Source: an uncultured delta proteobacterium
GTDB lineage: Bacteria > Myxococcota > UBA727 > VGSZ01
Length of the DNA stretch: 64,000 nucleotides
Direction: 5' to 3'
Assembly (NCBI GenBank): GCA_963775425.1
Contig: CAVZJB010000008.1
Location: forward strand, 355,424-419,423
How positions within the stretch are numbered: position 1 is the first letter of the stretch; each line of letters starts with the position of its first letter. Made by a program: the position numbers and the translations under genes. Positions 28,081 through 46,576 of the stretch are shown in pieces. The notes under the pieces were generated by a model. That model was not told the DNA's origin and ran no database searches. It worked only from the letters and a program-made list of their open reading frames with translations.

Positions 28081-29057
28081 CGCGGCGCCGGCGTCCGCGC
28101 GACGATCTCGTCGACGACGCCCCGCGCGCGCTGCCGCGCCTCGGCGCCCTCGGGGACGCCGCGCACGGCGAGGCGGTGCACGAGGACGGCGTGGGCGGTG
28201 GCCTTGACGTCGTCGGGGAGGACGAACGCGCGCCCCGCGAGGACGGCCCGGGCGCGGCACAGCGCTGCCCAGCTCAAGGCGCCGCGCGGCGAGCACCCGA
28301 GCTCCACCGCCGGATGCGTGCGCGTGGCGTCGACGATGCGCAGGAGGTACGCGGCCACCGCGTCCGAGAGCGGGAGCGCCTTCACCTCCGCCTGCAGCGC
28401 GCGCACGCGATCCGGATCGAGGTGGGGCGCGAGCGCGCGGAGCGCGTCGTCGGCGGTGCGGTTCCCGACGAGGAGACGGCGCTCGTCCTCCGGCGGCGGA
28501 TAGCCGAGCGTGAGGCACACCATGAAGCGGTCGAGCTGGCTCTCGGGGAGCGGGTAGGCCCCGTGGTGCTCCACGGGGTTTTGCGTGGCGAGCACCACGA
28601 AGGGCGGCGGCAACGCGTGGGTCTCGTCGTCGACGGAGACCTGGAAGTCGGCCATGGCCTCGAGCAGCGCCGACTGCGTCTTCGGCGACGCGCGGTTGAT
28701 CTCGTCGGCGAGGACGACGTGGGCGAACAGCGGGCCGCGCTTGAAGCGCAGGGTGGTGGTGGCGGTGTCGAGGATCTGGACGCCGATGACGTCGGACGGG
28801 AGCAGATCCGCCGTGAACTGGATGCGCGAGAAGCTGCACCCGAGCGCCTTGGCGATGGCGCGGGCGAGCGTGGTCTTTCCGACCCCGGGGACGTCCTCGA
28901 GCAGCACGTGGCCGCCGGCGAGGACGGCGGCGAGGGCGAGCCGGACCGTCTCGGGGTTTCCGCGCACGACCTCGAGCACCGCGTGCTCGACGGCCGCGAG
29001 CTGCGCCGATCCCCGCGGTGCGTCAGGGGTGGGCAACGGGGGTACGCTGTCTGCCAT
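28077..29057 (-). CDS. moxR: MoxR family AAA+ ATPase
   Basis: LEDVPGVGKT, RIQFTADLLPSD, DEINRA, ATQNP. Confidence 0.95.
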   Translation of the reverse strand: MADSVPPLPTPDAPRGSAQLAAVEHAVLEVVRGNPETVRLALAAVLAGGHVLLEDVPGVGKTTLARAIAKALGCSFSRIQFTADLLPSDVIGVQILDTATTTLRFKRGPLFAHVVLADEINRASPKTQSALLEAMADFQVSVDDETHALPPPFVVLATQNPVEHHGAYPLPESQLDRFMVCLTLGYPPPEDERRLLVGNRTADDALRALAPHLDPDRVRALQAEVKALPLSDAVAAYLLRIVDATRTHPAVELGCSPRGALSWAALCRARAVLAGRAFVLPDDVKATAHAVLVHRLAVRGVPEGAEARQRARGVVDEIVARTPAPR

Positions 29058-29102
29058 GGCCAGCGAGCCTACCAGACGCGCCGGCTGCGCTACGTTCGGG
29101 GC

Positions 29103-31523
<2,421 letters not shown>

Positions 31524-31576: not shown

Positions 31577-32422
31577 GTGCACGCGCATCGCCGATCGAAC
31601 GCTCCCTCCGGTCGCCGATCCCACGCGGCCGCTCCCTCCGGTCGCCGATCCCACGCGGCCGCTCCCTCCGGTCGCCGATCCCACGCGGCCGCTCCCTCCG
31701 GTCGCCGATCCCACGCGGCCGCTCCCTCCGGTCGCCGATCCCACGCGGCCGCTCCCTCCGGTCGCCGATTGGCCGTCGCGCTGCTCGGCGCGCTCGCGCT
31801 CGCCGTCCTCGTCGCCTTCCCCGCGCACGCCGCCGGCAGCAAGGCAAAGGCGCGCACGCTCTTCCATCAGGGACAGAGCGCCTACGAGGCCGGCGACTTC
31901 CAGGGCGCGCTCGACCTCTTCCAGGAGGCATACGCCACCGTCCCCGCGCCCGCGCTCTACTTCAACATCGCGCAGTGCTACCGGAAGCTCGGCGATCACG
32001 CGCACGCCGTCGAAGCCCTCGAGAAGTACCGCAAGCTCCAAAAGAGGATCCCCGCGTCCATCCGCAAGGAGCTCGAAGCGCAGCTCGCCGAAGAAAAGGC
32101 GCTCCTCGCCTCGCCCCCACCCGAGGCGGCGCCGCCCCCACCTGCCGCGCCGGATCCGCCGCCACCGCCACCGGCGCCGCCGCCGGCAGCGCCACCCGCC
32201 GCGTCCGTGCCGCCGCCGCCCGCTCCCGACGAGGCGCGCCCCGCCGCGGCCGTCGACGACGACGCGGCGCCCCTCTGGCAGAACCCGTTCGTCATCGGGG
32301 CCGCCGTCGGTGTCACGGCGGCCGCCATCGCCGGCGGCGCCGCCGCGGTGCTCTACTACACGGCACCGGGACCGCCGGTCCCGTCGACGACGCTCGGCGC
32401 GATCGACCTGAGGGATAAATGA
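31577..32422 (+). CDS. TPR protein with Pro-rich linker and C-terminal TM
   Basis: ARTLFHQGQSAYEAGDF, LYFNIAQCYR; start uncertain. Confidence 0.8.
   Translation: MHAHRRSNAPSGRRSHAAAPSGRRSHAAAPSGRRSHAAAPSGRRSHAAAPSGRRSHAAAPSGRRLAVALLGALALAVLVAFPAHAAGSKAKARTLFHQGQSAYEAGDFQGALDLFQEAYATVPAPALYFNIAQCYRKLGDHAHAVEALEKYRKLQKRIPASIRKELEAQLAEEKALLASPPPEAAPPPPAAPDPPPPPPAPPPAAPPAASVPPPPAPDEARPAAAVDDDAAPLWQNPFVIGAAVGVTAAAIAGGAAAVLYYTAPGPPVPSTTLGAIDLRDK
31601..31769 (+). repeat. Perfect 30-bp tandem repeat, about 5.6 copies
   Basis: GCTCCCTCCGGTCGCCGATCCCACGCGGCC repeated with no spacers. Confidence 0.95.
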
Positions 32423-34962
32423 GCGCCTCCCGCAGCAGGACGTGCGCGCTCCTCGCGGTCGCCGCGCTCGCGTGCGGTTGCCGCGACCCGCAGGCCGTCA
32501 TCATCGTCGGCGCCACCCTCGACCCGTCGCTCGGCATCGACCAGCTCGCGTTCACGCTCTCGAGCGGAGACACCAGCATCGAGGCCACGGCACCCGATGC
32601 GCCCGGCGAGGCGTTCGCAGACCGCGAGCAGACCGCGGCGTTCCTCCTCCCGCCGGCGCTCGTCGACGTCGACGTCGCCGTCGCCGTCGAAGGCAGCGCG
32701 GACGGCGGCGCCGGACGCGAGGTGCGCGCCCGCGGTGAAAACAGCATCCGCACCATCCCCGACACCACCGTGAAGGTCTTCGTCAAGCTCGCCTCCGTCC
32801 CCTTCTGCGGCGACGGTGTCCTCGACGACGGCGAGGCCTGCGACGACGGTGGCATCGCCGATGACGACGGCTGCTCCTCCGTCTGCGAGATCGAGCGCGG
32901 CTTCGTGTGCAGCGGCGCCCCCTCCCTGTGCGTGTCCGCGTGCGGCGACGGCGAGGTCGCCACCGGCGCCGAGGAGTGCGACGACGGCGGCGGCGACAGC
33001 GGCGACGGCTGCTCCGCGGCGTGCACCGTCGAGATCGGCTACGCCTGCGACGGCTCGCCCTCCGTGTGCGCGCCGGTGTGCGGCGACGGCCTCCTCGTCG
33101 GCGGCGAGGCGTGTGACGACGCGGACGTCGGCGACGGCGACGGCTGCTCGTCGACCTGCGCGGTCGAAGCCGGTTTCACGTGCAGCGGCGCGCCGTCGGC
33201 GTGCACCGCCGTCTGCGGCGACGGGCTCGTGCGCGGCGCCGAGGACTGCGACGACGTCGTTGGCGCGCCCGTCGACGGCGACGGTTGCTCTTCGACGTGC
33301 ACCCTCGAGACCGGTTACGCGTGCACCGGAGAGCCGTCCACCTGCGCGCCGGTGTGCGGCGACGGCGTCGTCGTCGCCGGCGTCGAGGGCTGCGACGATA
33401 GCGGCACCGCCGACGGTGACGGCTGCTCTTCGACGTGCACCCTCGAGCTCGGCTTCACGTGCGCGGGCGAGCCCACGGTGTGCGCGCCCGTGTGCGGCGA
33501 CGGCCTCGTGCGCGGCGGGGAGCAGTGCGACGACGTGGTGGGCACGCCGACGGACGGCGACGGTTGTTCGTCGACGTGCACCTTCGAAGAAGGCTTTTCG
33601 TGCGCGGGCGAGCCCACGGTGTGCGCGCCCGTGTGCGGCGACGGCCTCGTGCGCGGCGGGGAGCAGTGCGACGACGTCGTGGGCACGCCGACAGACGGCG
33701 ACGGCTGCTCGGCGGTGTGCGCCCGCGAGAGCGGCTTCGACTGCACGGGCGAGCCCAGCGTCTGCAGCACGGTGTGCGGCGACGGCCTCGTGCGCGGCGC
33801 GGAGGAGTGCGACGACGGCGCGGGCAACGGCAACGGCGCGGACCAGTGCCGCTCGGGCACGTGCACGCTGCCGTTCTGCGGCGACGCCATCACCGACACC
33901 GGCGAGCAGTGCGACGACGGCAACGCGGCCAACGACGACGCTTGCCGCACCGACTGCCGCACGCCGACGTGCGGCGACGGCTTCCTCGACCAGGGGGAGG
34001 CGTGCGACGACGGCAACATCGCGCCGGGGGACGGCTGCTCCGACACGTGCACCGTCGAGGCGACGTTCTCGTGTCTCGGGTCGCCGAGCGTGTGTGTGGC
34101 CACGGCCAACGTGCACGTCATCGGCGCGGGCGGGGAGTTCACCGTGATCGGAGACGCGGTGGCGTCGTCGTCGGTGGTGAGCGGCGACACGCTGTTCATC
34201 CTGAGCGAGTCGTTCAACGAAAACGTCGCCATCTCCACCAAGGACCTCACGTTGGTGGCCGACGCCGGCGCGGTCTTGTTCTCCGACGCCGACGGCAACG
34301 ACCTCGAGGCGTTGAACGTGAGCGGCGGCCGGACGGTGTCCGTGCAGGGCCTTTCCATTCGTCAGACCTCGCCCTCGAGCTCGAGCTCGGCAGTGACGGT
34401 GTCCGGCGCCGGCACGAGCCTGACGGTGCGGGGCTGCACGCTGGGGCCCTCGGGGCGCATCGGCGTCGACGCGGCGTCGGGGACGACGGTGACGCTCGAG
34501 CGGACCCTGGTGCAGGGCAACAGCGGAGGCGGCCTGGTGCTCGCGGGCGACTACACCGTCGACAACACGGTGGTCACCGGGAACGGGACCTCCGCGTCCG
34601 CGGTGGGCGGCGCGTCGCTCGCGGCGAGCGGCGTGTTCCGCTTCGACACGGTGGCGGGCAACACGTCGGCGTCGACGTCGCCGGCGGGCGTGGTCTGCGC
34701 GTCGGCGACGGCGCTGGTGTCATCGGTGGTGTTCGGCAACGCCGGCGCCGCCACCGAGGTCTCGGCCGCGTGCGACGGCTCGACGAGCAGCGTCGGCGTC
34801 GATCCCCTCTTCGACACCGACGGCTTCCACCTCTTGCCCGCGTCCCCCGTCGTCGACCAGGCGCCCGTCGCCGGCTGCCCCGCCCTCGACTTCGACGGCG
34901 AAGCCCGCCCCATCGGCACGCTCTGCGATCTCGGCGCCGACGAGCGCCCCCGCGGCCCCTGA
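32419..34962 (+). CDS. Myxococcal Cys-rich repeat (DUF4215-like) lipoprotein with C-terminal beta-helix
   Basis: Many CGDG...E.CDDG....DGCS..C repeats; pectin-lyase-like tail ending CDLGADE. Confidence 0.9.
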   Translation: MSASRSRTCALLAVAALACGCRDPQAVIIVGATLDPSLGIDQLAFTLSSGDTSIEATAPDAPGEAFADREQTAAFLLPPALVDVDVAVAVEGSADGGAGREVRARGENSIRTIPDTTVKVFVKLASVPFCGDGVLDDGEACDDGGIADDDGCSSVCEIERGFVCSGAPSLCVSACGDGEVATGAEECDDGGGDSGDGCSAACTVEIGYACDGSPSVCAPVCGDGLLVGGEACDDADVGDGDGCSSTCAVEAGFTCSGAPSACTAVCGDGLVRGAEDCDDVVGAPVDGDGCSSTCTLETGYACTGEPSTCAPVCGDGVVVAGVEGCDDSGTADGDGCSSTCTLELGFTCAGEPTVCAPVCGDGLVRGGEQCDDVVGTPTDGDGCSSTCTFEEGFSCAGEPTVCAPVCGDGLVRGGEQCDDVVGTPTDGDGCSAVCARESGFDCTGEPSVCSTVCGDGLVRGAEECDDGAGNGNGADQCRSGTCTLPFCGDAITDTGEQCDDGNAANDDACRTDCRTPTCGDGFLDQGEACDDGNIAPGDGCSDTCTVEATFSCLGSPSVCVATANVHVIGAGGEFTVIGDAVASSSVVSGDTLFILSESFNENVAISTKDLTLVADAGAVLFSDADGNDLEALNVSGGRTVSVQGLSIRQTSPSSSSSAVTVSGAGTSLTVRGCTLGPSGRIGVDAASGTTVTLERTLVQGNSGGGLVLAGDYTVDNTVVTGNGTSASAVGGASLAASGVFRFDTVAGNTSASTSPAGVVCASATALVSSVVFGNAGAATEVSAACDGSTSSVGVDPLFDTDGFHLLPASPVVDQAPVAGCPALDFDGEARPIGTLCDLGADERPRGP

Positions 34963-34996: not shown

Positions 34997-35419
34997 TCAA
35001 CGCGCGAGCGACCACAAGCGGCGCAGCGCCCGCCGCCACCGCGGTGGGGTCGGCGTCGGCCCGCGCACGGGCCCGCCGTCGACGGAGACGACGAGGCCGA
35101 CGACCTCCTGCGGGGCGAACCAGCCGTCGGGGCTCGGGCACGCGTCACCCTTGGTGAGCACGCGCCCGGCGGCGTCGATGCCCACCACCCGGTGCACCAT
35201 GAGGGAGACACGCGCATTGGTGACCGCAACGACCTCGCCAAGCCGAGGCGGTCTCGCGAGCGGCGCCAAGGTCAGGGTGGCGCCGTTGCGGATGGCGGCC
35301 TGCATGGACCCGCCGCGCGCGATGATCGTCTGCCCGTTTCCCCGCCGCAGGACCTCGATGACGAGGTCGAGACGGGCCATCTCCAGGTTGACGGCGCGCG
35401 CGCGTGACGCGGGCCTCAT
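34997..35419 (-). CDS. S24/S26 family peptidase (SipW-like Ser-His dyad), putative RiPP leader peptidase
   Basis: GGSM, VHRVV, TKGD motifs; no N-terminal TM; ATGA-coupled to the methyltransferase. Confidence 0.82.
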   Translation of the reverse strand: MRPASRARAVNLEMARLDLVIEVLRRGNGQTIIARGGSMQAAIRNGATLTLAPLARPPRLGEVVAVTNARVSLMVHRVVGIDAAGRVLTKGDACPSPDGWFAPQEVVGLVVSVDGGPVRGPTPTPPRWRRALRRLWSLAR

Positions 35420-36546
35420 GAGGCACGCTCCGCCGAAGCGATCATGCGGAGGACATCTTGTTCAGCGTCGCCGTCGTCGAGATAGCGGTCGGGATACGCG
35501 CTGCGAAGCCGACGCGCCATCGTCGGCACGTCCCCGGCGTCTCCACCGAGCGCCGCCGCCCATCGCGCCAAAGCCGCCGGCGCGGAGCCCTTTCCCGGAA
35601 CGACGATGTCGAGCTGTCGCAGCCAATCGTCGCGATCACCGACGAGCGACTTCATCGCGTTGCCTTCGCTCCGTTCGGCCCCGCTGCGAGCCGACCACTT
35701 CCAGGTCCCGCGATCCGTGAGCAGGCGCGTGCGTACCTCGACGTGGACGTCGTCACCGGGCGAGACGGACAACGGTTGCGCGAGGGGAAAGACGAGGTGC
35801 GCCCAGTGCGTGGAGGCGGCCGCCGGCGAGGACGACAGGCGGACTCCCTCGACGAGATCGGATTCGAACCAGCCGACCAGCGCGTTGACGCGAGCCGCTC
35901 TGGTGGCGCGCGAGACGCCGCTTACCATCGCCGGCGGCGGTCCATCGACGTCGAATCGCGCGGAGCAGGACGAGCCTGCGATGGCATCACCTGGGACCCG
36001 AGCGAGAGAGACGCGTGAGAGCAGGCGATCGGCGAGCCCGTTCATGGTGACGCCGAGCTGGCCGCGGATCATCCCGACTTCCCGATCGAGCGCGGGCAGC
36101 TCGGCGACAGCGACATGGGTCTCGACGGAGCCCGGGATGACGCGACAGCTCTGCGCACAATGCTTGCGCACGGTGCCGAGGAGGCCGCGGTAGTCCTCGT
36201 CGATGCCGAAGCTGCCGATCATCTCGCTCACGAGGACGTTCGGGGCCAGCGGGAGCTTGATGTCCCTGGCGTCGCCGCGGATGACCTCGATGACGCTGTC
36301 GAGGCCGTTGTCCCGCGCGGCCTCCCTCACGATCTCGACCATGGGGCCGCGCTCCAGCGCGTAGACGCGCCGCGCGCCGGCCTTGGCGCAGAGCAGGGCG
36401 AGGATGCCGCTCCCGGAGCCGACATCGACCACGACGTCGCCCGGTTTCACGCCTTGCTCGATCGCCGCGGCGAACGCCGACATTCGCACGCGGTCGACGA
36501 GCATCATCGCGTGGTTGGCGACGTCGTCGTATCCAAAGACACCCAC
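35416..36546 (-). CDS. PRMT-like SAM-dependent methyltransferase
   Basis: HAMMLVDRVR, VVDVGSGSGIL, double-E loop SEMIGSFGIDE, THW loop. Confidence 0.85.
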   Translation of the reverse strand: MGVFGYDDVANHAMMLVDRVRMSAFAAAIEQGVKPGDVVVDVGSGSGILALLCAKAGARRVYALERGPMVEIVREAARDNGLDSVIEVIRGDARDIKLPLAPNVLVSEMIGSFGIDEDYRGLLGTVRKHCAQSCRVIPGSVETHVAVAELPALDREVGMIRGQLGVTMNGLADRLLSRVSLARVPGDAIAGSSCSARFDVDGPPPAMVSGVSRATRAARVNALVGWFESDLVEGVRLSSSPAAASTHWAHLVFPLAQPLSVSPGDDVHVEVRTRLLTDRGTWKWSARSGAERSEGNAMKSLVGDRDDWLRQLDIVVPGKGSAPAALARWAAALGGDAGDVPTMARRLRSAYPDRYLDDGDAEQDVLRMIASAERAS

Positions 36547-36570: not shown

Positions 36571-37779
36571 CTAGTCGAACATCGCGAGGACGTTGCCCGC
36601 GGTGCCTTCCGCCTCGGGCAGGGTCGTGTCGCCGACGATGCTCAGCGGACGGCCGCCGCGACCGATCTTGGCGTTCGTACGTTCGGCGCGCTCGGCGAGG
36701 CGGACCAGCGCTTCAGCGCTCGTCTGCGACGCCGTGTTGCACGCCCGGAAGTCGCCGTGCTCGACCTGCCCGTACGCCATGCATGGGTGGCAAGCGGACC
36801 TGACGCTGCACGACGGGCACGACGTCATCTTCTCGAAGGTCATGCCGCGCATCTCGTGAAGGACGGCGTTGCGCTCCCAGATGTCCCGCAGCGCGTTGTT
36901 GCGGACGTTGCCCACGGCGGTAGGGAAGAACCCGCACGGGAGCACGTCGCCGGACGCCGCGACCGCGAGCGTGGAGCTCCCCGCGCCGCACATCGCCGAC
37001 GAGCCGTGCAGGAAGTCCGCGCCGTGGCAGATGGTGTCCGGTGTGACCTCGCGAAACCCCGGGTAGAGGTCGCGCCGCGCGAACACCTTGTCGGCGAGCG
37101 TCTTGGCATCGAGCGCGTACTTCAGCGTCGAGCGATCGTTGGACATCCGCGGGCGCACGTTCGGGTCGAGCTGGAACGCGACGCCGAGCTCATGGGCGAG
37201 CCGCACGATGTCGTCGATGCGGTCGACGCTGAACGTCGTCAGCACGCACTTGAGGGCGGCCTTCACCCCGTGCTCGGCGAGCATGCGCAGCGCGTCGGTG
37301 CTGCGCTTCCACGAGCCGGGGATCCGCGTGAACGCGTCGTGGTCGGCCGCGACATCCGAGTAGACCGAGATGTCGACCTGCGCCACGCCGAGCTCCTTCA
37401 AACGAAGGATCTTCTCGCGATTGAGCAGCGTGCCGCTGGTGAACAGGGTGGTGTGGAACCGGAGTCTCTTGGCGACGGCGAGGATCTCGAAGATGTCGCG
37501 CCGCAGGAAGATCTCGCCGCCCGTGAGGGTGAGCTGGAGGCATCCGAGCGCGGCGAGGTCGGTGAGAACACCCTCGACCTCCGAGAGCGACATCATCTCG
37601 TCGGTGGCGTGCGTGCTCTCGTCCTCGTAGCAGTGCTCGCACTTCAGGTTGCACGCGTTCACCAGATAGACCTGCGCGTGGAACGGGATTGCCCGTTCCC
37701 TGGCGCGCTCGCGCAGCTCGAGGAAGCGCGCCGGCGTCCGATCGAACATCTGCCCGAGGATCGGCAGCGCCTTGCTCAC
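36571..37779 (-). CDS. Radical SAM/SPASM peptide maturase
   Basis: CNLKCEHC, TGGE, SPASM CGAG...GDVLPC...CPSC...CHPC...C. Confidence 0.93.
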   Translation of the reverse strand: MSKALPILGQMFDRTPARFLELRERARERAIPFHAQVYLVNACNLKCEHCYEDESTHATDEMMSLSEVEGVLTDLAALGCLQLTLTGGEIFLRRDIFEILAVAKRLRFHTTLFTSGTLLNREKILRLKELGVAQVDISVYSDVAADHDAFTRIPGSWKRSTDALRMLAEHGVKAALKCVLTTFSVDRIDDIVRLAHELGVAFQLDPNVRPRMSNDRSTLKYALDAKTLADKVFARRDLYPGFREVTPDTICHGADFLHGSSAMCGAGSSTLAVAASGDVLPCGFFPTAVGNVRNNALRDIWERNAVLHEMRGMTFEKMTSCPSCSVRSACHPCMAYGQVEHGDFRACNTASQTSAEALVRLAERAERTNAKIGRGGRPLSIVGDTTLPEAEGTAGNVLAMFD

Positions 37780-38609
37780 GCCGCCTTCCGGGACGCTGCG
37801 AGGTGACCCTCGATCTCGTCGATGATCGTTGCGAGAGGGGTGTCGACGTGGCGCGCGAGGGAGAAGACCGGCGTGGTCTGGACCGCGCGCTGCGCCCAGG
37901 CGAGCGCCGCCCGGCCCTCCGCCGGCGTGCGCTCGAAACAGCACAGGTGGCGCAGCAGCTCCCCGGCCGCCCGCGCACGATCTTCGCGCACGCTGAGGGC
38001 GGTGCGCGGCGGTCGGTCCGCGGACAGCAGGACGAGGGCCCGAACGGCGTGGTGGGTGGGACGCGCCCGCCGCGTGGCGAGCCCTGAAAACGGCGAGCCC
38101 CACACCGCGAGGCCGCCCTGTGTCGGCGTCACGATGCTCTGATCGTCCGACAAGTACACGTCGTCCGGTGTGCCCTCGACGAGCGTGGTCTTCCCGGCGC
38201 CCGAGAGGCCGCAGAAGACGTAGCCGCCGGCGCCGAACGCCGCTGACGCCGCGTGCAGGAGGGCGCCCCCCGCGCGCAGGAGGATGCTGGCGCAGGCGGC
38301 CCGCAGGAAGGACTCGAACAGGGGGAAGCCACCGTCGCCCTGGTCGAGGCTGCCGGTGTACTCGGCCCTGCGCGTTCGGAGGTCGAGCGTGGCCGTGAAC
38401 GCCCCGGCGCGCGTCAGGTGGAGCGTGTCCCCGTCGACGCGGGTGTGGATCTCGGCGAGCGCTCCAACGTCCGCCGGCGGCGTCCGGCGGCCGACGACGG
38501 CGACCTCGAGGTCAGGCGGGCGGCGCGCGTCCTCGCGCTCGCAGCACCAGTCGACGGGAGCGTCGACCGACGTTGCGATGCGCAGAGGGCCGACGCGCCA
38601 GAGCGTCAA
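37776..38609 (-). CDS. HprK-related P-loop kinase (ScmC/lasso-kinase-like)
   Basis: LLHAAS, GLSGAGKTT, LSDD, GSPF; TTG start overlaps precursor TGA. Confidence 0.82.
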   Translation of the reverse strand: MTLWRVGPLRIATSVDAPVDWCCEREDARRPPDLEVAVVGRRTPPADVGALAEIHTRVDGDTLHLTRAGAFTATLDLRTRRAEYTGSLDQGDGGFPLFESFLRAACASILLRAGGALLHAASAAFGAGGYVFCGLSGAGKTTLVEGTPDDVYLSDDQSIVTPTQGGLAVWGSPFSGLATRRARPTHHAVRALVLLSADRPPRTALSVREDRARAAGELLRHLCCFERTPAEGRAALAWAQRAVQTTPVFSLARHVDTPLATIIDEIEGHLAASRKAA

Positions 38610-38782
38610 GACGCACCCAGCGTCGTGCAGCTCGCCGCTCCGTTCTTCGGCTGCGGCGTGCGGCCACCCTGCGTTCCGTTGCACCCGAGCGCCAGGCGCT
38701 CGTAGGTCTCGGAGCTCACGATCGCGGGCGGCTTGTAGGGGCTCTTCTTCTTCTGCTGCTGCGGCATCCGCACCTCGCTCAT
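38606..38782 (-). CDS. Putative RiPP precursor peptide (58 aa)
   Basis: MSEVRMPQQQKKKSPYKPPAIVSSETYERLALGCNGTQGGRTPQPKNGAASCTTLGAS; YxxPxI RRE-binding motif; starts 3 nt after upstream stop, stop overlaps kinase start. Confidence 0.85.
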   Translation of the reverse strand: MSEVRMPQQQKKKSPYKPPAIVSSETYERLALGCNGTQGGRTPQPKNGAASCTTLGAS

Positions 38783-38785
38783 GGT

Positions 38786-41700
38786 TCAGAAGCGTACGAT
38801 GATCGAGCCCGGCCGGGTGGTCGGCTCCAGGATCAAATCGGGCTCGGGCGAGCTGCCGATCAGGTTGGCGGCGCTCACGAAGACGGCGTCCGAGCCGGTC
38901 ACCGTGATGGCGTAGGTCGTGTCCGCGGTCTTGGCGGCGATGGGGTTGGCGCCGAAGGCGATGGACGTGGCGGTCTTGCCGCCCTGGACGAGGTCGGCGC
39001 GGGCGTCCCCGTTCAGGCTCGGCAGCACGAGGGACGTGCCGACGAGGAGCACGTTGCCGCCGCCGAAGGTGGTCTCGCCGCTCCACGTCGCGCCCGTGTT
39101 CTCCACCACGGTGAGGCCGTCCTGCGAGAAGTAGACCGCGTCGATGTCGCCGTCGCCGTCGACGTCACCGCTCGACAGATCGAAGCCCGGCGTGCGGGAC
39201 ACCGACTTGGTGATGGCGACGAAGTCGTTGCCCGTCGTGCCGTTGAGGTCGAGGGTGGCCGGCCACGTGTCCTGGCCGCGGACGACGAACAGCGACGGCA
39301 CGCTGCCCGTGCACGAGATCATGATGTCGTCGCGTGTGTCGCCGTTGGACCCGACGCCGGCGATGCCGGCGCCGAAGCCCGCGGAGCCTGTCGCGTCGCT
39401 GTTGGAGATGACGGTGCTGGCCACGTCGTCGATGAGGCCGCTCGTGGGCACGGCCCCTGTGTTGAGGAACACGTAGGCCTTGGCGAGCAGCGGGGCGGTG
39501 AAGCCCCAATCCGGGGCGCCGTCGCCGTCGACGTCTCCGAGCGTCTGCGCGTTGTAGCCGGCGAGGCCGAAGGTCGGCGCCTCGAGCACCGCGGCGGGCG
39601 TGGCGTCGGAGGCGATGCCGGTGCTGCTGCCCGGGTAGATGAAGAGGAACTCCTGATTGAAGTTGCTGTCGTACCCGACGACGATGACGTCGTCGAACGC
39701 GTCGCCGTCGATGGACTTGACGACGTTGACCGCCCAGCCCATCTCGAGCGGCGTGCACGTGCCCGCGGCGCACGGGAACGACGCCGGCGGGGTGACGACG
39801 GTCCGCTGCAGGTCGTTCTCCGTGGCGCCGCCGAGGATGACCTCGAAGGCCCCCGCCTGGCCGGCGAACTGGTTCGGCGCGCCGACCACGATGTCGTCGA
39901 GGTTGTCGCCGTTGATGTCGCCGCGCGAGCGCGACAGCGCCTGCGCCCAACCGTTCACGCCGGCCGGCGGCGCGAGCGTGACGCTGTTGGTGGCGACGAC
40001 GACCTGCGTGGTGGCCAGGGCCGAGCGGTTGCCGACGTCGTCGGTGGCGCGCAGCGCGATGAACCACGTGTTGTCGAACGCGAGCGGCGTCGTCGACGTA
40101 TCGACGAGCTCACCGGTGCCGCCATTGGCGGTCTGCGCGACGTTCGCCGCCGCGATCTGGCCGGCGCCGCCGAAGTTGGCGTCGGTGATGGCCGTCTTGG
40201 AGAAGAAGATCTGGACCGCGGTGGGGCCGGCGGCGTTGTCGAAATTGTCATCGCCGGGCTGTGTGTAGGTGACGCCGACGTTGCCGGCGCGCGCATCGAG
40301 CACCGCGACGTTGAGCGTGGGCGAGCCCGGCGACGTGATGTCCACGGTGGCGATGAACGAGTCCGGCGTCGTGGGTGTGTTGCCCTCGGAGTCGGTGCAC
40401 GTGGCCGTCCAGGTCTCCGCGTCGCCTTGCGCGGCGTCGCTCACGGCGACCGCAAGGCTCCCGCTGCCCGAGGCGTCGACGTTCGTCGAGCCGATCACCG
40501 TGGCGCCGTCGAGGACCTGCAACACGCCGTTTTCGCACTGCGTGACGTCGACGTTGACCTGCACCTGCAGGCCGGCGACGCCCTGCTGGAGGTCGCTGGC
40601 CTTGTTGAACGTCGCCGTCGCGCCCGCGGGGTTGGTGAAAGCGGTGGTCGGGCGCCCGAGGTCGACGCGGAAGCTCTCCTCCCCGCTCGTGCCCGTCTTG
40701 GGACCGTCCTGCACCGTGACCTCGAACGTGCCGGTGGCGCCGTCGTCGAGCGTGAACGCGGCGCACGACAGGCCGCCGGCGCCGTCCACGGTGCACGTGG
40801 TGGCGGTGGCGCCGTTGATGAGCACTTGCGCCGTGGCGGTCACCGGAGCGTCGGTGGTGCCGGTGACGACGATCTGCGCACCCGTGGCGCCGGCGTCGGT
40901 GTCTTCGGCCACGCCGACGGAGCGGAAGCCGGCGCGCAGCGGCGGGTTGGTGATGGCCACGAAGAAGATGCCGGTGGCGACGGTGACGGTGACGGTGTTG
41001 GACACGCCTACGTTGCCGGCGGCGTCGGTGGCGGCGGCGGTGACGTGATGGTCGCCTTCGGCCAGGTAGGTGACGCGGCACTGGACGGCGACGCCGTCGC
41101 CGGCCGAGACGCAGGGGAAGCCCGCGGTGTTGATGGCGCCGCCCTGAAGGTCGCTCGTGATGGTGATGGGCAACCCGGCGGCGAGTCCGGTTGGCGTGAC
41201 GGTGACGTTCACCTGGACGCCGTTGGTGGCGTTGCCGTCGAGGTCATCCGCGCTGCCGGCGTCGTTCGCCACGAGCACGAGAACCGGCGGCGCGGTGTCG
41301 ACGGAGACGGCGACCGGGTCGCTCGTCGCCGGGTTTCCTGCCGGATCGGAGACCGTGGCGGTGATGGCGCGGTTGCCGTCGGGGACGGTGACGCGCACCG
41401 TGACGGAGCCGTTGTTGAGCGTGCCCGGAGCACCGCTGGGCGTGCCGTCGATCGCGATCTGCACGCTCTGGCCGTCGCCGGCGTCGCTCGTCACGATGAC
41501 GTCCGTCTGCAGCCCGTTCGAAGCGTCGCCGTCCGCGTCGTCGGCCAGGTTCAACGTGCCGGCTGGTGGCGCCTCGACGACGACGACGGGCGGGACGGTG
41601 TCGACGGTGACGGTGAGGTGCGTGGTGTTCGGGTCGAGCGCATTTCCGCCGGGATCCGAGCCCGTGACGACGAGCTCGTCGTCTCCCTGGGTGAGGGGGA

Positions 41701-43696
41701 ACGTGGTGAAGGTCGCGGCCCCTCCGCTCACGACGGCGGTCTTGGTGCCGCCCGGACCCGTCAGGCGAACCGTGCGGCCGTCCATGTCGCTGCTGAACGT
41801 CACCGTGACGTCGCTCGCGACGTTCCCGGTTGCGGCGCCGCCGTTGTCGGCGGCGTTGAGGACGTTGTCGCTCCCCGCGTTGTCCACGACGATGGATTCG
41901 ACGGTGGGAATGCTCGAGTCGGTGTTGAACGTGATGGGACCACTGGTGTGCACGTTCCCCGCCGCGTCCGCCGCGGTCGCGGACAGCGTGTGGGTTCCGT
42001 CGTCGAGGGTGACGGTGGCGGTGCACGACGTTCCGGCGACGGCACCGGTCTGCTCCACGCCGTCCACCGTGACCGTGCAGGACGTCGTCCCCGCCGAGAC
42101 CACGAGGACGATGCGGGCCTGGAATCCGGCCGTGCTCGGATCCGCGTCGTTGCTCGCGTTGAGGCTCAACCCCGCGTTGGGGGAGAAGAACACGACGTCG
42201 GGGTCGACCGTGTCGATGACGATGTCACGCGTGATGTGCGGGCCGTCGACGTCGGTGGCGCTGACCGCGAAGACCTCGAGGTGCCAGGTGGCGCGGTCGG
42301 AGAAGTCGATGTTGAGGCTCTCGAGGAAGGGCGCGGACAGGTCGACCGCGGTCTCCTCGAGTGCGAGGTTGCCCGCCGGATCAGTGAGTCTGACGGTGCC
42401 GGTCAAGCCGGTGACGTCGCCCGAAGGCGTGAACGTCGCCGCGATCTCGAGCACATCGGCGGTGGAGAGGTCGGGGTCGTCCGCCGCGAGGTATGCGCCG
42501 TCGTTGCCGCTGCCGGTGGGGTCGAGCGTGATGCTGAACGTCGGCGCGCTCGACTGGACCGTGAAAAGAACCACGGTGTCCTCGCCGTCGACGGTGAGCG
42601 TGAGGGTGCAATCGGGCTGAACGAGTCCGTCGATTTGCGCGGTGATGTGCACTCTTCCGTTGGTCGGTGTGAGGGTGATTTCCGGATTCGCGCCCCCGGA
42701 GGTCCCCGTGATTTCCTGGTTGCCGGCCGTGGGATTGGCGTCGTCCTGGCAGAGCGCGTCGAACGAGACCGCGCTTGCCTCGTCGGCGGTGGCGTCGAGC
42801 GCGATGCTGATGCCGTCGAACGGATTGCTGTTGAGGTCGTCGGCGTCGGTGTAGGGCGGCGCGGTGCGCGGGCTGACGACATCCACCTGGTTGGGGAGGT
42901 TCACGTGGATAAGGATCGTGGGGTCGATGGTGACGATGTCAGGAGCGAGGCCGAGCGCATTGGTGGGGTCGAGGAGCTGGCCGCCGAGCGTGGCATCCTC
43001 GCCCTTGGTGAGCGGCACCGTGGCGGTGCCCACGGCGTTGGCGAGCTGCGCCGTACCGCTGGTGGTGACGTTCGTGGTGTCGGACGTGGCGTCGACGCGC
43101 ACCTGCGCGGTGTTGAGGAACGCGATGATGGTGGGGTCCGTGCTCGTGGTGGAGCAGGCCACGCCGACGTCGAAGGGCGTCTCCGTGGCGGTGTCGCCGT
43201 CACCCGGGGACGTGATGTGGCACTCGACGCTGAATTCCTGGCCCTCGACGCAGTCGTCGCGGATGGTCGCGGTGTCGGTGAGGTCCTGGGTCGAGTCGCC
43301 GTTGCTCGCGACCGCCGTCAGCGTGTTCTCGGCGCCGGGCGCCTCGCCGCCGACGAGGGTGATGCGGACCGTGGCCTCGCCGTCCGTGAAGGTGCCGCTG
43401 CCGGTGTTGCCATCGGTGCCGCGGGCGTCGCTGACGTCCACGGAGCCGTAGCCGCTGCCGTCGTCGTTGATGAGGTCCACCTGGAGGTCGATCTGCACGC
43501 CGGGCGTATTGGGGTCGACGTCGTCGGCGCAGTGCACGACGTCGGGGAGGCCCGCGAACGCGATGGAGGGCTGCTCCGGCTCGCCTTCCGCGGGCTTGCA
43601 GGAGTCGTCGCAGCAGCAGGAGTCACCGCACGCGGCGGCGACCGACAGACCCAGAATCAACCCGCCCAGGCGCACAATGGAATTCGTGAAAAACAT
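38786..43696 (-). CDS. Large surface lipoprotein with tandem Ig-like domains and C-terminal FG-GAP/integrin-like beta-propeller
   Basis: Lipobox VAAAC, repeated ATDAAGN/DTVPP Ig motifs, [23 protein letters not shown]. Confidence 0.85.
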   Translation of the reverse strand: MFFTNSIVRLGGLILGLSVAAACGDSCCCDDSCKPAEGEPEQPSIAFAGLPDVVHCADDVDPNTPGVQIDLQVDLINDDGSGYGSVDVSDARGTDGNTGSGTFTDGEATVRITLVGGEAPGAENTLTAVASNGDSTQDLTDTATIRDDCVEGQEFSVECHITSPGDGDTATETPFDVGVACSTTSTDPTIIAFLNTAQVRVDATSDTTNVTTSGTAQLANAVGTATVPLTKGEDATLGGQLLDPTNALGLAPDIVTIDPTILIHVNLPNQVDVVSPRTAPPYTDADDLNSNPFDGISIALDATADEASAVSFDALCQDDANPTAGNQEITGTSGGANPEITLTPTNGRVHITAQIDGLVQPDCTLTLTVDGEDTVVLFTVQSSAPTFSITLDPTGSGNDGAYLAADDPDLSTADVLEIAATFTPSGDVTGLTGTVRLTDPAGNLALEETAVDLSAPFLESLNIDFSDRATWHLEVFAVSATDVDGPHITRDIVIDTVDPDVVFFSPNAGLSLNASNDADPSTAGFQARIVLVVSAGTTSCTVTVDGVEQTGAVAGTSCTATVTLDDGTHTLSATAADAAGNVHTSGPITFNTDSSIPTVESIVVDNAGSDNVLNAADNGGAATGNVASDVTVTFSSDMDGRTVRLTGPGGTKTAVVSGGAATFTTFPLTQGDDELVVTGSDPGGNALDPNTTHLTVTVDTVPPVVVVEAPPAGTLNLADDADGDASNGLQTDVIVTSDAGDGQSVQIAIDGTPSGAPGTLNNGSVTVRVTVPDGNRAITATVSDPAGNPATSDPVAVSVDTAPPVLVLVANDAGSADDLDGNATNGVQVNVTVTPTGLAAGLPITITSDLQGGAINTAGFPCVSAGDGVAVQCRVTYLAEGDHHVTAAATDAAGNVGVSNTVTVTVATGIFFVAITNPPLRAGFRSVGVAEDTDAGATGAQIVVTGTTDAPVTATAQVLINGATATTCTVDGAGGLSCAAFTLDDGATGTFEVTVQDGPKTGTSGEESFRVDLGRPTTAFTNPAGATATFNKASDLQQGVAGLQVQVNVDVTQCENGVLQVLDGATVIGSTNVDASGSGSLAVAVSDAAQGDAETWTATCTDSEGNTPTTPDSFIATVDITSPGSPTLNVAVLDARAGNVGVTYTQPGDDNFDNAAGPTAVQIFFSKTAITDANFGGAGQIAAANVAQTANGGTGELVDTSTTPLAFDNTWFIALRATDDVGNRSALATTQVVVATNSVTLAPPAGVNGWAQALSRSRGDINGDNLDDIVVGAPNQFAGQAGAFEVILGGATENDLQRTVVTPPASFPCAAGTCTPLEMGWAVNVVKSIDGDAFDDVIVVGYDSNFNQEFLFIYPGSSTGIASDATPAAVLEAPTFGLAGYNAQTLGDVDGDGAPDWGFTAPLLAKAYVFLNTGAVPTSGLIDDVASTVISNSDATGSAGFGAGIAGVGSNGDTRDDIMISCTGSVPSLFVVRGQDTWPATLDLNGTTGNDFVAITKSVSRTPGFDLSSGDVDGDGDIDAVYFSQDGLTVVENTGATWSGETTFGGGNVLLVGTSLVLPSLNGDARADLVQGGKTATSIAFGANPIAAKTADTTYAITVTGSDAVFVSAANLIGSSPEPDLILEPTTRPGSIIVRF

Positions 43697-43785
43697 GGAC
43701 CCCTCCCGAAAACGACCCACGGATGAGTTGACACATGATCGGGGGCTCCTCAACCCCGCCATGCCTCGCACGACAGGCCGCCGGC

Positions 43786-44094
43786 TCACGACGGGGACTC
43801 GGAGGTCAAAAGGAGGTTCCGTGCCAGGGCGTCGTCCACGAAAACAAGCGCGTCGGCACGCAAGGTCTCTTCGTCGACCTCGAACTCCTCGAGCATCTCG
43901 ACGACGATGGCGTCGAGCGTGCGGGTGCCGTCGGCGCGGTCCCAGATGAAGGTGGCTGTGTCGTTCAGCGTGTGCAGCGTCGAGTCTTCAGGCGTGATCA
44001 CGATTGCTTCCCCGTCGATGGTCCGCGCCGGGGTATCGGGATTCTGACGTAGATACAGGGTCCACATGCGGGCGCGGGGGTTGGTGTCGTTCAT
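43786..44094 (-). CDS. PqqD family RiPP recognition element (RRE)
   Basis: IDGEAIVI, LNDTATFIWDRADGTRT...EEFEVD. Confidence 0.92.
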   Translation of the reverse strand: MNDTNPRARMWTLYLRQNPDTPARTIDGEAIVITPEDSTLHTLNDTATFIWDRADGTRTLDAIVVEMLEEFEVDEETLRADALVFVDDALARNLLLTSESPS

Positions 44095-44106: not shown

Positions 44107-45273
44107 TCAATTCTGAAGGAGGGCGTCGACCTCCCCCTGGATGACCGCGGGGTCGGTGTAGCCGAGGTGCATGTGCCGCACCGTGCCGGCCTTGTCGACG
44201 ATGTAGGAGGTGGGCAGCGTGGTCAGCCCGAGCCGCTCGCCGAAGAAGCGGTCGTCCACGACGCAGTCGAAGCTCGGCCGGATCTGTGCCAAGGCCTTGC
44301 CCGCGGCCTTCGGGTCGTGGGGCTCGCGGTTGACCCCGAGGACGGCGAGGCCGCGGCCGCGGTAGCGCTCCGCCAGCGCCGACAGCTCCGGCATCGAGCG
44401 GCGGCAGGGGCCGCACCAGGACGCCCAGAAGTCGAGGATCAGAACCTGGCCACGGAAGCTCGCCAGCTTCACCGCCTCCTTCTGGATGCCGTACTCGTCG
44501 AGCTTGTGCAGCCGCGTGTCGGGGAGCGGGTCGCCGACGAGGACGGGGCGGATGCGGTCGGCGTACTTGATCGACGACGTCACCGCCCCGGCCGACAGGG
44601 CCGCCAGGCTCGCGAGGAGCACGGCCCCGCCCGCGCGCAGCCGGGCCCGCGGCGGGGCGGGCGGGGCGCCGCCGGGGCGCCGCAGCCAGGGCACGAGGGT
44701 CAGCCCGAGGGCCAGGGGGACGCCGTAGGAGACCACGCACTTCACCACGAAGCGCAGCGCGCTCACCTGCCGCCCGACGACGACGGCCATGGAGTCGACG
44801 GCCTCGTTGGGCATCCACCAGCGCCCCGCGCCGAACCCCGCGAACGCGCCGCCGACGGCGATGAGCGCGACGAGCGGCACCGTCAGGTACGCCGCCGCCA
44901 CCGCCGCGCGCCACGGGGATACGCGCCCCTTCGTGAGCAGGCGCGCGAGCGCCGCGACGACGGCGCAGGTGGCGAGCAAGAGCGCGGCGTGCGTCTTCAG
45001 GTCGTCGAAGAGCGTGTCGCGGATGCGCCGGAGGATGACCTCACCGCCCGCGCCCACGAGGAAGGACAGCCGCGCGAGCACCTTGACGTCGACGACGACC
45101 ACGGCCGCGACGAGCAGCGCCACCGGCGGCCACCACGGCGCGCCCCGCGCGGCGACGGCCCGCAGCGTGCGCACCGGCGCGGCGATCATGCCGCCGAGGG
45201 CGTCGAGCGCGCCCACGGGCCCCGCGGCCGGGGCGTCGACCTCGCCGGTCGACCGCGCGCCGGCGCCGCTCAC
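44107..45273 (-). CDS. Membrane-anchored TlpA-like thiol-disulfide redoxin with Yip1-like TM N-terminus
   Basis: LDFWASWCGPC, LPTSYIVD; several TM helices. Confidence 0.82.
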   Translation of the reverse strand: MSGAGARSTGEVDAPAAGPVGALDALGGMIAAPVRTLRAVAARGAPWWPPVALLVAAVVVVDVKVLARLSFLVGAGGEVILRRIRDTLFDDLKTHAALLLATCAVVAALARLLTKGRVSPWRAAVAAAYLTVPLVALIAVGGAFAGFGAGRWWMPNEAVDSMAVVVGRQVSALRFVVKCVVSYGVPLALGLTLVPWLRRPGGAPPAPPRARLRAGGAVLLASLAALSAGAVTSSIKYADRIRPVLVGDPLPDTRLHKLDEYGIQKEAVKLASFRGQVLILDFWASWCGPCRRSMPELSALAERYRGRGLAVLGVNREPHDPKAAGKALAQIRPSFDCVVDDRFFGERLGLTTLPTSYIVDKAGTVRHMHLGYTDPAVIQGEVDALLQN

Positions 45274-45788
45274 GAGCGCGCTCCCGTCCGCGCCCGCAGC
45301 GACGCGAAGAAGTCCTTGAGCGCCGCGCCGCACTCGTCGGCGAGGACGCCGGCGGTGACGTCGAGGCGGTGGTTGAGCCGCGGGTCGTCGCAGACCCGCG
45401 CGAGCGACGCGACGGCGCCGGCCTTCTCGTCGGTGGCGCCGTAGACGAGGCGGTCGATGCGCGCGTTCACCAGGGCGCCCGCGCACATGAAGCACGGCTC
45501 CAGCGTGACGACGAGCGTAGCCCCGGACAGCCGCCAGCGCCCGAGCGCGCGGGAGGCGGCGGCGATGGCGCGGATCTCGGCGTGGCCGAGCGGGTCGAGG
45601 TCCACCTCGCGCCGGTTCATGCCCTCGCCGACGATCTCGCCGTCGACGACGACCACGGCGCCCACCGGCACCTCGCCGAGCGCCCGCGCCTCCGCCGCGA
45701 GCGCGAGCGCCCGGCGCATGAAGCGCTCGTCCCCGGCTGCGTCGGCGCCGCGCGCGGGCTCGTCCGCCGGGAAGGCAGGCCGGTTCAC
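45270..45788 (-). CDS. tadA: tRNA adenosine(34) deaminase
   Basis: GEVPVGAVVV, HAEI, TLEPCFMC, KAGA, NHR. Confidence 0.92.
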   Translation of the reverse strand: MNRPAFPADEPARGADAAGDERFMRRALALAAEARALGEVPVGAVVVVDGEIVGEGMNRREVDLDPLGHAEIRAIAAASRALGRWRLSGATLVVTLEPCFMCAGALVNARIDRLVYGATDEKAGAVASLARVCDDPRLNHRLDVTAGVLADECGAALKDFFASLRARTGARS

Positions 45789-46576
45789 GACGGGTACCAC
45801 GGGTGCATGTGGTGCACCGGGCCGCGCCCGCGGCCGATGCCGGGCGCCGTGCGAATGGCCTCCTGCACGTACGCGTGCGCGCGCACCACGGCTTCGACGA
45901 GGGGGAGGCCGAGCGCGAGGCAGGCGCAGACGGCGGCCGAGAGCGCACAGCCCGTGCCGTGGGTGTGCATGGTGTCGATGCGCGGCGACACGAGCTCCTT
46001 GACGGCGTCGCCGTCGAAGAGGACGTCGACGGGATCGCCCTGAGCGTGGCCGCCCTTCACGAGCGCCGCCTTGGCGCCGAGCTGCACCAGCGCGCGCGCG
46101 GCCTGCTCCTGCTCGTCGACGTTGCGGACGAGGAAGCCGCAGAGCTTCTCCGCCTCGGCGAGGTTGGGCGTCACCAGCGTGGCGTGCGGGATGAGGCGCT
46201 CGCGCAGCACGCGCACGCCGTCGTCGTCGAGGAGGGTGGCGCCGGAGGAGCTCTGCATCACCGGATCCACCACGACCGGCACCGCGCACTTGATGAGCTC
46301 GACGGCGACGGCGTCGGCGACGGCGCCGCTCCCGAGCATGCCGGTCTTGATGGCGCGCACCGGGATGTCGTCGAGGACGGCGTCGATCTGGTCGGCGACC
46401 AGCGCCGGATCGAGGGCCGCCACCCGCCGGACGCCGAGGGTGTTCTGGGACGTGACCGCCGTGACGGCGGCGGTGCCATAGACCTGCAGCGCGGCGAAGG
46501 TCCGCAGGTCCGCCTGGATGCCGGCGCCGCCCGACGGATCGGAGCCTGCGACGGTGAGCGCGCATGGGAGCGTCAT
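45785..46576 (-). CDS. thiD: Hydroxymethylpyrimidine/phosphomethylpyrimidine kinase
   Basis: AGSDPSGGAGIQAD, KTGML, TPNLAEA, HGTGC. Confidence 0.95.
   Translation of the reverse strand: MTLPCALTVAGSDPSGGAGIQADLRTFAALQVYGTAAVTAVTSQNTLGVRRVAALDPALVADQIDAVLDDIPVRAIKTGMLGSGAVADAVAVELIKCAVPVVVDPVMQSSSGATLLDDDGVRVLRERLIPHATLVTPNLAEAEKLCGFLVRNVDEQEQAARALVQLGAKAALVKGGHAQGDPVDVLFDGDAVKELVSPRIDTMHTHGTGCALSAAVCACLALGLPLVEAVVRAHAYVQEAIRTAPGIGRGRGPVHHMHPWYPS

Follow-up and report, generated by a model that had tools for sequence, protein, structure and literature searches.

A probable precursor peptide in a conserved myxobacterial cassette that joins a recognition element and an HprK-like kinase to a radical SAM/SPASM enzyme

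Sactipeptides and ranthipeptides are thioether peptides made by radical S-adenosylmethionine (SAM)/SPASM enzymes. The leaders of lasso peptides carry the motif [Y/W]xxPx[L/V/I] (PMC6784204; also PMC13381572), and HprK homologues of lasso clusters, as reviewed in PMC8498205, phosphorylate the C-terminal Ser of the linear precursor. The gene clusters for linear polyphosphorylated peptides (LPP) in Bacillota (LppA/LppK/LppB/LppS/LppD/LppN; Popov et al., Nat Commun 2026, PMC13381572) are described in the main text of that paper as having a leader of the form YxxPxVLxHQxIxFETxxS, a SipW-like peptidase that needs the recognition element (RRE) for peptides made on ribosomes and modified after translation (RiPPs) in order to cut after F-E-T, and an HprK-like kinase that polyphosphorylates core Ser3, with an exporter and a nucleoside triphosphate (NTP)-transferase also in the cluster; the same main text states that they are restricted to Bacillota. 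Here we analyse a short minus-strand gene, read as a precursor peptide of 58 amino acids (aa), at 38606..38782 of the window, by which we mean the whole 64,000-nucleotide stretch of contig CAVZJB010000008.1 (positions 355,424 to 419,423; assembly GCA_963775425.1) from an uncultured member of the Myxococcota.

From sequence comparison we consider it likely that this open reading frame (ORF) encodes the substrate peptide of an RRE-dependent maturation cassette that joins a lasso/LPP module to a radical SAM/SPASM enzyme, here together with an enzyme like the protein arginine N-methyltransferases (PRMTs). The cassette is conserved among myxobacteria and is still uncharacterised; LPP is the closest published system, followed by the phosphorylated lasso peptides. 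With LPP the window shares a discrete lasso-like RRE, an HprK-like kinase and a soluble SipW-type peptidase; with lasso peptides of the paeninodin type, a B1-type PqqD protein, a [Y/W]-x-x-P leader, an HprK homologue and a terminal Ser; and with sactipeptides and ranthipeptides, a radical SAM/SPASM maturase, predicted RRE-dependent recognition and a Cys-containing core, on which the enzyme is presumed to act. In minus-strand order, the genes are:

44107..45201, minus strand: TlpA/ResA-like thiol-disulfide oxidoreductase with a C-terminal redoxin domain, its start somewhere inside ORF 44107..45948
43786..44094, minus strand: discrete PqqD-family RRE of 102 aa (Pfam E 4.1e-18), its TGA overlapping the GTG of the giant ORF
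38786..43789, minus strand: giant Ig-like/PKD/FG-GAP protein, an ORF of 1667 aa, found between PqqD and peptide in most related loci
38606..38782, minus strand: precursor peptide gene, an ATG-to-TGA frame of 58 aa and member of a conserved family
37776..38609, minus strand: P-loop kinase of predicted HprK/PEPCK fold, 277 aa, its TTG start overlapping the peptide TGA
36571..37779, minus strand: radical SAM/SPASM enzyme (Radical_SAM 2.3e-21, SPASM 1.8e-10)
35416..36546, minus strand: PRMT-like methyltransferase of 376 aa with matches to the PRMT fold and a C-terminal helical extension (about residues 305-375)
34997..35419, minus strand: soluble S26 peptidase (archaeal/SipW-type signal peptidase I-like) of 140 aa, its ATG overlapping the methyltransferase TGA

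Stop and start codons overlap between PqqD and the giant gene (GTGA), peptide and kinase (TTGA), kinase and radical SAM gene (GTGA; the likely start is the GTG at 37779, with GGAAGG before it) and methyltransferase and peptidase (ATGA), and the eight genes are, as their arrangement reads, one translationally coupled operon.

The frame and its fit to the locus are as a first-pass annotation, made from the letters alone, had given them: coordinates and sequence match exactly, the TGA of the 1667-aa gene (38788-38786) lies 3 nt before the peptide ATG, and the peptide TGA (38608-38606) shares two bases with a TTG (38609-38607) lying in the frame of the kinase ORF; this TTG corresponds in the alignment to the start Met of the closest kinase homologue. 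The start of the peptide is uncertain by five residues, because a second in-frame ATG at 38767 is preceded by GAGG (38776-38773, 5-nt spacer) and the protein database already holds the resulting 53-aa form (P0005); the first ATG (38782) has no GAGG-type ribosome site before it, and the 53-aa form is at least as likely as the 58-aa form. The gene had also been thought hidden, but since that entry exists, gene callers evidently do find it, as the shorter form.

An open frame of this length alone means little, because 102 ORFs of at least 40 aa lie in 17 kb here, at ~70% guanine-plus-cytosine (GC) content, and this abundance is what a chance frame in GC-rich DNA, or a mere spacer of the gene pair, would have in its favour. 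Against such an origin stand the codon-position GC of the peptide gene (0.56/0.58/0.90), a pattern that the flanking genes show and the overlapping plus-strand frames lack, and conservation at the protein level that extends to 668 representatives with fixed motif spacing; this explanation is already refuted and its probability is next to nil. It is from this conservation, i.e. syntenic homologues and profile matches, that we conclude that the ORF is real, and it is very probably the true precursor of its cassette. The leader residues are KKK-S-P-Y16-K-P-P19-A-I21 ... Y27-E28-R29-L-A-L-G33; candidate cores begin at L30 or C34, and Cys34, Arg41, Lys46, Cys52 and the C-terminal Ser58 are all present.

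Homologous peptides sought at related loci were found, in synteny, in other genomes. The closest kinase homologue (47% identity, in genome G001) is preceded by a 61-aa ORF and a more distant one (in G017) by a 73-aa ORF, and both peptides sit between an FG-GAP gene and the kinase gene; these FG-GAP genes end in I-R-Y, their counterpart in the window in V-R-F. The two peptides share the pattern P/S-Y-x-x-P-x-[IL]-x-x-S-E-x-F-E-R-L-A-L-x-C-[NS]-G, and each has another Cys close to its end. When 401 genomes of the phylum were searched in six frames, a narrow profile matched 25 of them (E ≤ 0.01) and a broad one 30 (E ≤ 0.001); the broad profile gave 0 of 172 in the largest family, and weak narrow-profile matches in family f14 were treated as false, given that 0/172. 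Some genomes carry three paralogues (G017, G013), and a scan of genome contigs with a four-sequence alignment returned only two loci that were already known.

A profile of 21 peptides, searched against 1.84 billion protein cluster representatives, retrieved 668 at E ≤ 1e-3 (18 at E ≤ 1e-10), all of them representatives at 50% identity. Motifs were counted in the best 149 short matches of these 668, and spacings in 147 or 126 of the 149. The leader motif that the first-pass annotation had recognised, here YxxPx[ILVFM], occurs in 147 of the 149, and nearly all of them have Arg or Lys at both positions ahead of P-Y. The Cys residues that it had singled out are conserved as well, the first lying exactly 18 residues past the Tyr in 126/147; from this Cys onward there are two Cys in 107/147 and four in 25/147. 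Other fixed positions (n = 126) are F (113), E (121), R (89, plus T in 19), L (72), A (105) and L (123), and small residues are strongly preferred at -3/-1 before the first Cys (AxA 48, AxS 24 and AxG 20 of 147). The terminal Ser recurs too: 132 of the 149 end in Ser, against 9.4% Ser overall, and five end in Thr. The family leader consensus is [KR][KR]-P-Y-x-x-P-x-[ILV]-x5-[FY]-E-[RT]-L-A-L-[ASG]. The core that follows is highly variable but contains a Cys pair and finishes in Ser; members of the close subfamily almost always have a Lys (Lys46 in the window) and the ending C-[TS]-[TS]-x-G-A-S.

This peptide family is large and unnamed, and it supplies a substrate for an otherwise orphan enzyme set. 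Ten representatives that we looked up were unnamed in nine cases and a 'hypothetical protein' in one; Pfam and NCBIfam hold no model for the family, and a profile search of solved structures gave no match. Unnamed 56-62 aa clusters from Acidobacteriota and Thermodesulfobacteriota in the ESM Atlas score 0.91-0.92 and are leads only.

Five further ORFs, weakly matched by the broad profile (L106, L109, L111, L112 and L114), share only the P-Y-x-x-P-x-I start, have other cores and were left out of the family. Their start is [KR][KR]-P-Y-x-x-P-x-I (L109 is from genome G187, L111 from G101 and L114 from G231), with a core such as K-K-R-A-V-S-R-A-T-L-F, and a PqqD-like ORF adjoins those of L106 and L112; they are probably other RRE-dependent peptide families of the phylum.

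To see how far the cassette is conserved, we took 16 genomic and 4 distinct metagenomic loci with up to 20 kb around each, many of which end at contig ends, and searched them with the window proteins and with hidden Markov models. Within these 20 loci, the kinase is present in 16, the radical SAM/SPASM gene in 14 (often as the gene next after the kinase, and in two copies in four loci), the Ig/FG-GAP gene in 13, PqqD in 11, the S26 peptidase in 8, the PRMT-like gene in 4 and the TlpA-like redoxin in 3. The full order redoxin-PqqD-giant gene-peptide-kinase-radical SAM-(methyltransferase)-peptidase recurs in four (L035, L068, L072 and L085). The PqqD, radical SAM and kinase genes that share an operon in the window recur beside homologous peptides, and the first-pass interpretation is supported in each of its sequence predictions that could be checked. 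At the other extreme, locus L084 (2581-3595 of a metagenome contig of 45-57% GC) has the peptide and an HprK-like kinase alone, flanked upstream by IF-3 and HU genes and downstream by genes for a 1810-aa TPR Ser/Thr kinase and for GlmU-like and GlmS-like proteins; because it has just those two, the peptide-kinase pair may be the oldest core of the cassette. Precursor genes also occur apart from a cassette: contig C18 of G013 carries two tandem paralogues with four Cys each (L067:9972-10380), with no maturation gene in the 15 kb covered and with the cassette of that genome (L068) ~305 kb away.

The PqqD protein of the window is nearest, by profile, to the lasso B1 protein TbiB1 (1.1e-12) and next to the 2026 PqqD-family chains 9x8z_B (2e-10) and 9x90_B (5e-10). 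A predicted fold of the complex of PqqD and peptide reached the mark, as did 116 of 157 complexes with solved structures and 2 of 215 pairs of mismatched proteins; at least 98% of contacts are common to the runs, and the predicted local distance difference test score (pLDDT) of the partner is at least 54. Its score, 0.54 (best of three controls, 0.00), falls in a band, at or below 0.60, in which the mark was reached by only 18 of the 157 solved complexes and by both mismatched pairs. The pass may also reflect memory, because like complexes have already been solved. Recognition of the peptide leader by PqqD is quite likely, and the modelled complex supports it weakly.

A Y-x-x-P-x-I leader, a PqqD protein nearest to TbiB1, an HprK-like kinase and a C-terminal Ser are also what the precursor of a (phosphorylated) lasso peptide would bring. 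Neither the eight genes of the operon nor the conserved gene order of the related loci, which is as far as this search extended within the genome, includes an asparagine-synthetase-like macrolactam cyclase or a transglutaminase-like B2 protease. What the operon has instead is a radical SAM/SPASM enzyme together with an S26 peptidase, and we regard a lasso product as extremely improbable.

The radical SAM enzyme has the CxxxCxxC motif and a SPASM Cys motif, and no N-terminal RRE domain. Its NCBIfam matches, all far below cut-off, include StsB, AlbA and SkfB (E 1.4e-31 to 5.1e-20), and it resembles PqqE (E 6.7e-32) and the mycofactocin maturase (E 1.7e-28), again below their cut-offs. On the sequence evidence, the chance that it acts on the conserved Cys pair is about even.

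Family matches of the kinase in Pfam and NCBIfam are weak, and comparison with the sequences of solved structures in PDB gave nothing meaningful (best E 0.51). Its AlphaFold model (pLDDT 89.4) is more informative, matching PEPCK with a Z of 14.0 (root-mean-square deviation 5.0, 240 residues aligned) and four HPr kinase/phosphatase structures with Z of 9.4-9.9 (127-132 aligned), and only 8 of 48,161 chains reach Z ≥ 5; Foldseek also gives PEPCK. The P-loop G-K-x-T, one His and one Asp are invariant among homologues, and 8 of 10 kinases of the family give weak matches to HprK-related kinase A, HprK-related kinase B and ScmC (best ScmC 1.7e-6). By its model the P-loop protein is thus an HprK-like kinase. 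Given the lasso-associated homologues and the 89% conservation of the residue, the terminal Ser is the best candidate for its target, with odds slightly better than even. The idea that the kinase occurs only where the peptide ends in Ser or Thr was ruled out, as kinases adjoin peptides that end in V, Y, C and P (L071, L074, L078 and L079).

The methyltransferase matches PRMT6/1/3 over residues 6-272 (E 9e-24) and passes the Pfam cut-offs for PRMT_C (32.3 bits against 27) and PRMT5 (27.1 against 22.9). We take a Rossmann domain with a beta-barrel, a double-E loop and a THW loop to be the hallmarks of PRMTs; an E-x8-E loop (S-E-M-I-G-S-F-G-I-D-E) and T-H-W are kept in 22 close homologues. The ~22 full-length relatives all come from Myxococcota assemblies and are named 'L11 methyltransferase' in public records, which looks like a misannotation, the product being, by sequence, like a PRMT, i.e. 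a putative protein arginine N-methyltransferase. As to its substrate, the first-pass annotation had suggested the Arg of a GGR motif as a methyl site. An Arg does lie between the two Cys in all five cassettes with a methyltransferase (the window, L036, L072, L073 and L085), compared with 64/147 (44%) family-wide, but its position is not conserved; from this pattern we put methylation of a core Arg at a little under even odds. The tail of the methyltransferase, which the ~22 close homologues also have, looks by eye like the helical half of PqqD and is modelled as four helices with no beta-sheet; as a PqqD-like RRE it was rejected, the alignment of residues 333-375 to 49-90 being not significant (hhalign probability 0.9, E 0.059).

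The S26 peptidase matches TIGR02228 with E 9.1e-8 (32.1 bits, below the cut-off of 51.85), keeps the Ser/His/Asp motifs G-x-S-M, H-R-[VI] and G-D...D-G in nine homologues, and shows no N-terminal hydrophobic segment in its translation. By analogy with the LPP peptidase it is a candidate leader peptidase. The boundary between leader and core had been guessed at G33|C34, which the small residues at -3/-1 fit; homology to LPP points instead to a site after Y-E-R29, four residues earlier.

In the maturation pathway that these parts suggest, PqqD would bind the Y-x-x-P-x-I leader, as lasso B1 and LppB do, and present the peptide to the enzymes; the radical SAM/SPASM enzyme would then modify the core, most likely at Cys34 and Cys52, as thioether cross-links; the HprK-like kinase would phosphorylate the hydroxyl of Ser58, as lasso-associated HprK homologues do; in cassettes that carry it, the PRMT-like enzyme would methylate the core Arg (Arg41); and the SipW-type S26 peptidase would remove the leader, either after Y-E-R29, by homology to LPP, or after A-L-G33, by the small -3/-1 residues.

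A number of observations weigh against this scheme. Scored against curated NCBIfam models, the kinase, radical SAM and S26 proteins all stay far under the cut-offs, and the PqqD-leader model lends weak support, its score being in the band just described. Cys counts are even in 132/147, as would be expected from disulfide pairs no less than from thioethers, and the operon contains a redoxin; the main alternative to thioethers is that Cys34 and Cys52 form a disulfide and the radical step takes place elsewhere. Nor does the number of radical SAM enzymes track the number of Cys, because loci with two such genes (L035, L072 and L085) carry two-Cys peptides. The terminal Ser is not universal, the 21 aligned peptides of the phylum ending in Ser in 15 cases and in Thr in one, and the kinase target may differ from it because kinases adjoin the V-, Y-, C- and P-ending peptides noted above. 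The position of the core Arg varies, and the sample of five out of five is small and phylogenetically dependent. Radical SAM, PqqD and S26 genes were not found in the 12.7 kb covered at L084, which includes 10 kb downstream of the pair. Finally, the operon of the window has no exporter gene.

In a rival explanation, the product would be an LPP-like linear (poly)phosphorylated peptide, its two Cys forming a disulfide after export that the TlpA-like redoxin handles, with the radical SAM enzyme acting on another residue or another substrate, e.g. the giant protein. LPP likewise has the RRE, the HprK-like kinase, the SipW-like peptidase and the Y-x-x-P and F-E-[RT] parts of the leader; even Cys counts and a TlpA-like gene (in the operon and in 3/20 other loci) suit a disulfide, and L084 consists of peptide and kinase only. 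Set against this, a radical SAM/SPASM gene follows the kinase in 14/20 loci, often as the next gene; the residue equivalent to the LPP phosphoserine (the third after F-E-T) is Leu in 123/126 family members, Leu32 in the window; and the peptide lacks a signal sequence, the operon an exporter. We consider this explanation improbable.

The proposed radical SAM cassette differs from LPP in further respects. The family leader has Y-x-x-P-x-[ILV] and then F-E-[RT], but with F-E-x 11-13 residues after the Tyr rather than 13-15 and with the H-Q-x-I part absent. None of the eight operon genes, which this search covered, matches the NTP-transferase LppN or the MsbA-like exporter LppD, whereas loci of the family carry one or two radical SAM/SPASM genes, the peptide core has a Cys pair and ends in Ser, and a subset adds the PRMT-like enzyme; the host is a member of the Myxococcota here and of the Bacillota there. 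The main text of PMC13381572, as distinct from its supplementary data, contains none of the terms 'radical SAM', 'SPASM', 'Myxococc' and 'methyltransferase', and our literature search found no description of a radical SAM variant of such a cassette. In contrast to sactipeptide and ranthipeptide systems, the thioether here is putative and the RRE is a separate, lasso-like protein encoded 5 kb upstream; the cassette further includes a kinase, a PRMT-like enzyme and an S26 peptidase, and it has no C39 peptidase/ABC exporter.

The same kinds of parts also occur in the SynChlorMet (ScmC/D/E/F) and GeoRSP (TIGR04248-04251, TIGR04302/04303) systems, which are themselves uncharacterised; a literature search found no paper on SynChlorMet. 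PqqD resembles ScmD (7e-9; 35.8 bits against a cut-off of 100) and the GeoRSP PqqD (2.5e-8; 34.3 against 100), and the radical SAM enzyme resembles its GeoRSP counterpart (5.7e-40; 137.9 against 400) and ScmE/ScmF (ScmE 85.1 against 400), while the kinase of the window gave no match to the ScmC model at E ≤ 1. Because every score is far below the curated cut-off, we treat the window cassette as a family apart.

The giant protein between PqqD and the peptide bears on what the matured peptide might do. Its ORF contains an internal Met followed by a hydrophobic stretch and A-A-A-C, seen by eye, a probable lipoprotein signal judging from the translation, and because a giant surface protein is linked to the peptide repeatedly, a role at the cell surface is hinted at rather than one as an antibiotic. 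In the making of PQQ (pyrroloquinoline quinone) and mycofactocin, a small peptide is processed in its C-terminal part by a PqqD-type chaperone together with a radical SAM/SPASM enzyme and a peptidase. By this logic, the peptide could be matured into a cofactor- or ligand-like partner of the Ig/FG-GAP protein, an explanation with which the position of the giant gene, the Ig/FG-GAP genes in 13/20 other loci, the lack of an exporter or immunity gene in the operon and the resemblance of the radical SAM enzyme to PqqE and the mycofactocin maturase (below cut-offs) all agree. It is nonetheless quite improbable, as the core is highly variable, unlike those of cofactor precursors, members of the family are also found where there is no giant gene (L071, L078, L079 and L084), and adjacency is the sole link between peptide and giant protein. 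That the product of the proposed cassette forms a ribosomal peptide class of its own, at once cross-linked by the radical SAM enzyme, phosphorylated on its last Ser, N-methylated on Arg, in this lineage, by the PRMT-like enzyme and, instead of a free antibiotic, a partner (ligand, cofactor or covalent) of the giant surface lipoprotein is a speculative combination that we think on the unlikely side; a literature search found no report of PRMT-type arginine methylation of a RiPP.

Seen as an RRE-dependent cassette with a radical SAM step, the family recombines lasso-type leader recognition (RRE, HprK-like kinase and YxxP leader) with a radical SAM/SPASM maturase and a signal-peptidase-like peptidase, while its nearest published relative, LPP, was described in 2026 from Bacillota only and without a radical SAM step. 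If the proposed role holds, the PRMT-like enzyme would be one of few arginine methyltransferases of bacteria for which a small substrate is defined. Predictions that mass spectrometry can test directly follow from the fixed motif spacing, from the Cys pair and from the terminal Ser.

Beyond the operon, the window holds an 847-aa protein gene at 32419-34962 on the plus strand, convergent with the operon, that encodes ten DUF4215 Cys-rich repeats and a beta-helix region (Pfam 5.7e-55). Further along, the translations show a Ser/Thr protein kinase-like ORF with a very long Ser/Pro-rich repeat region (28176-31523, plus strand) and a set of MoxR-type ATPase-like, DUF58-like and transglutaminase-like membrane proteins (24905-29792, minus strand).

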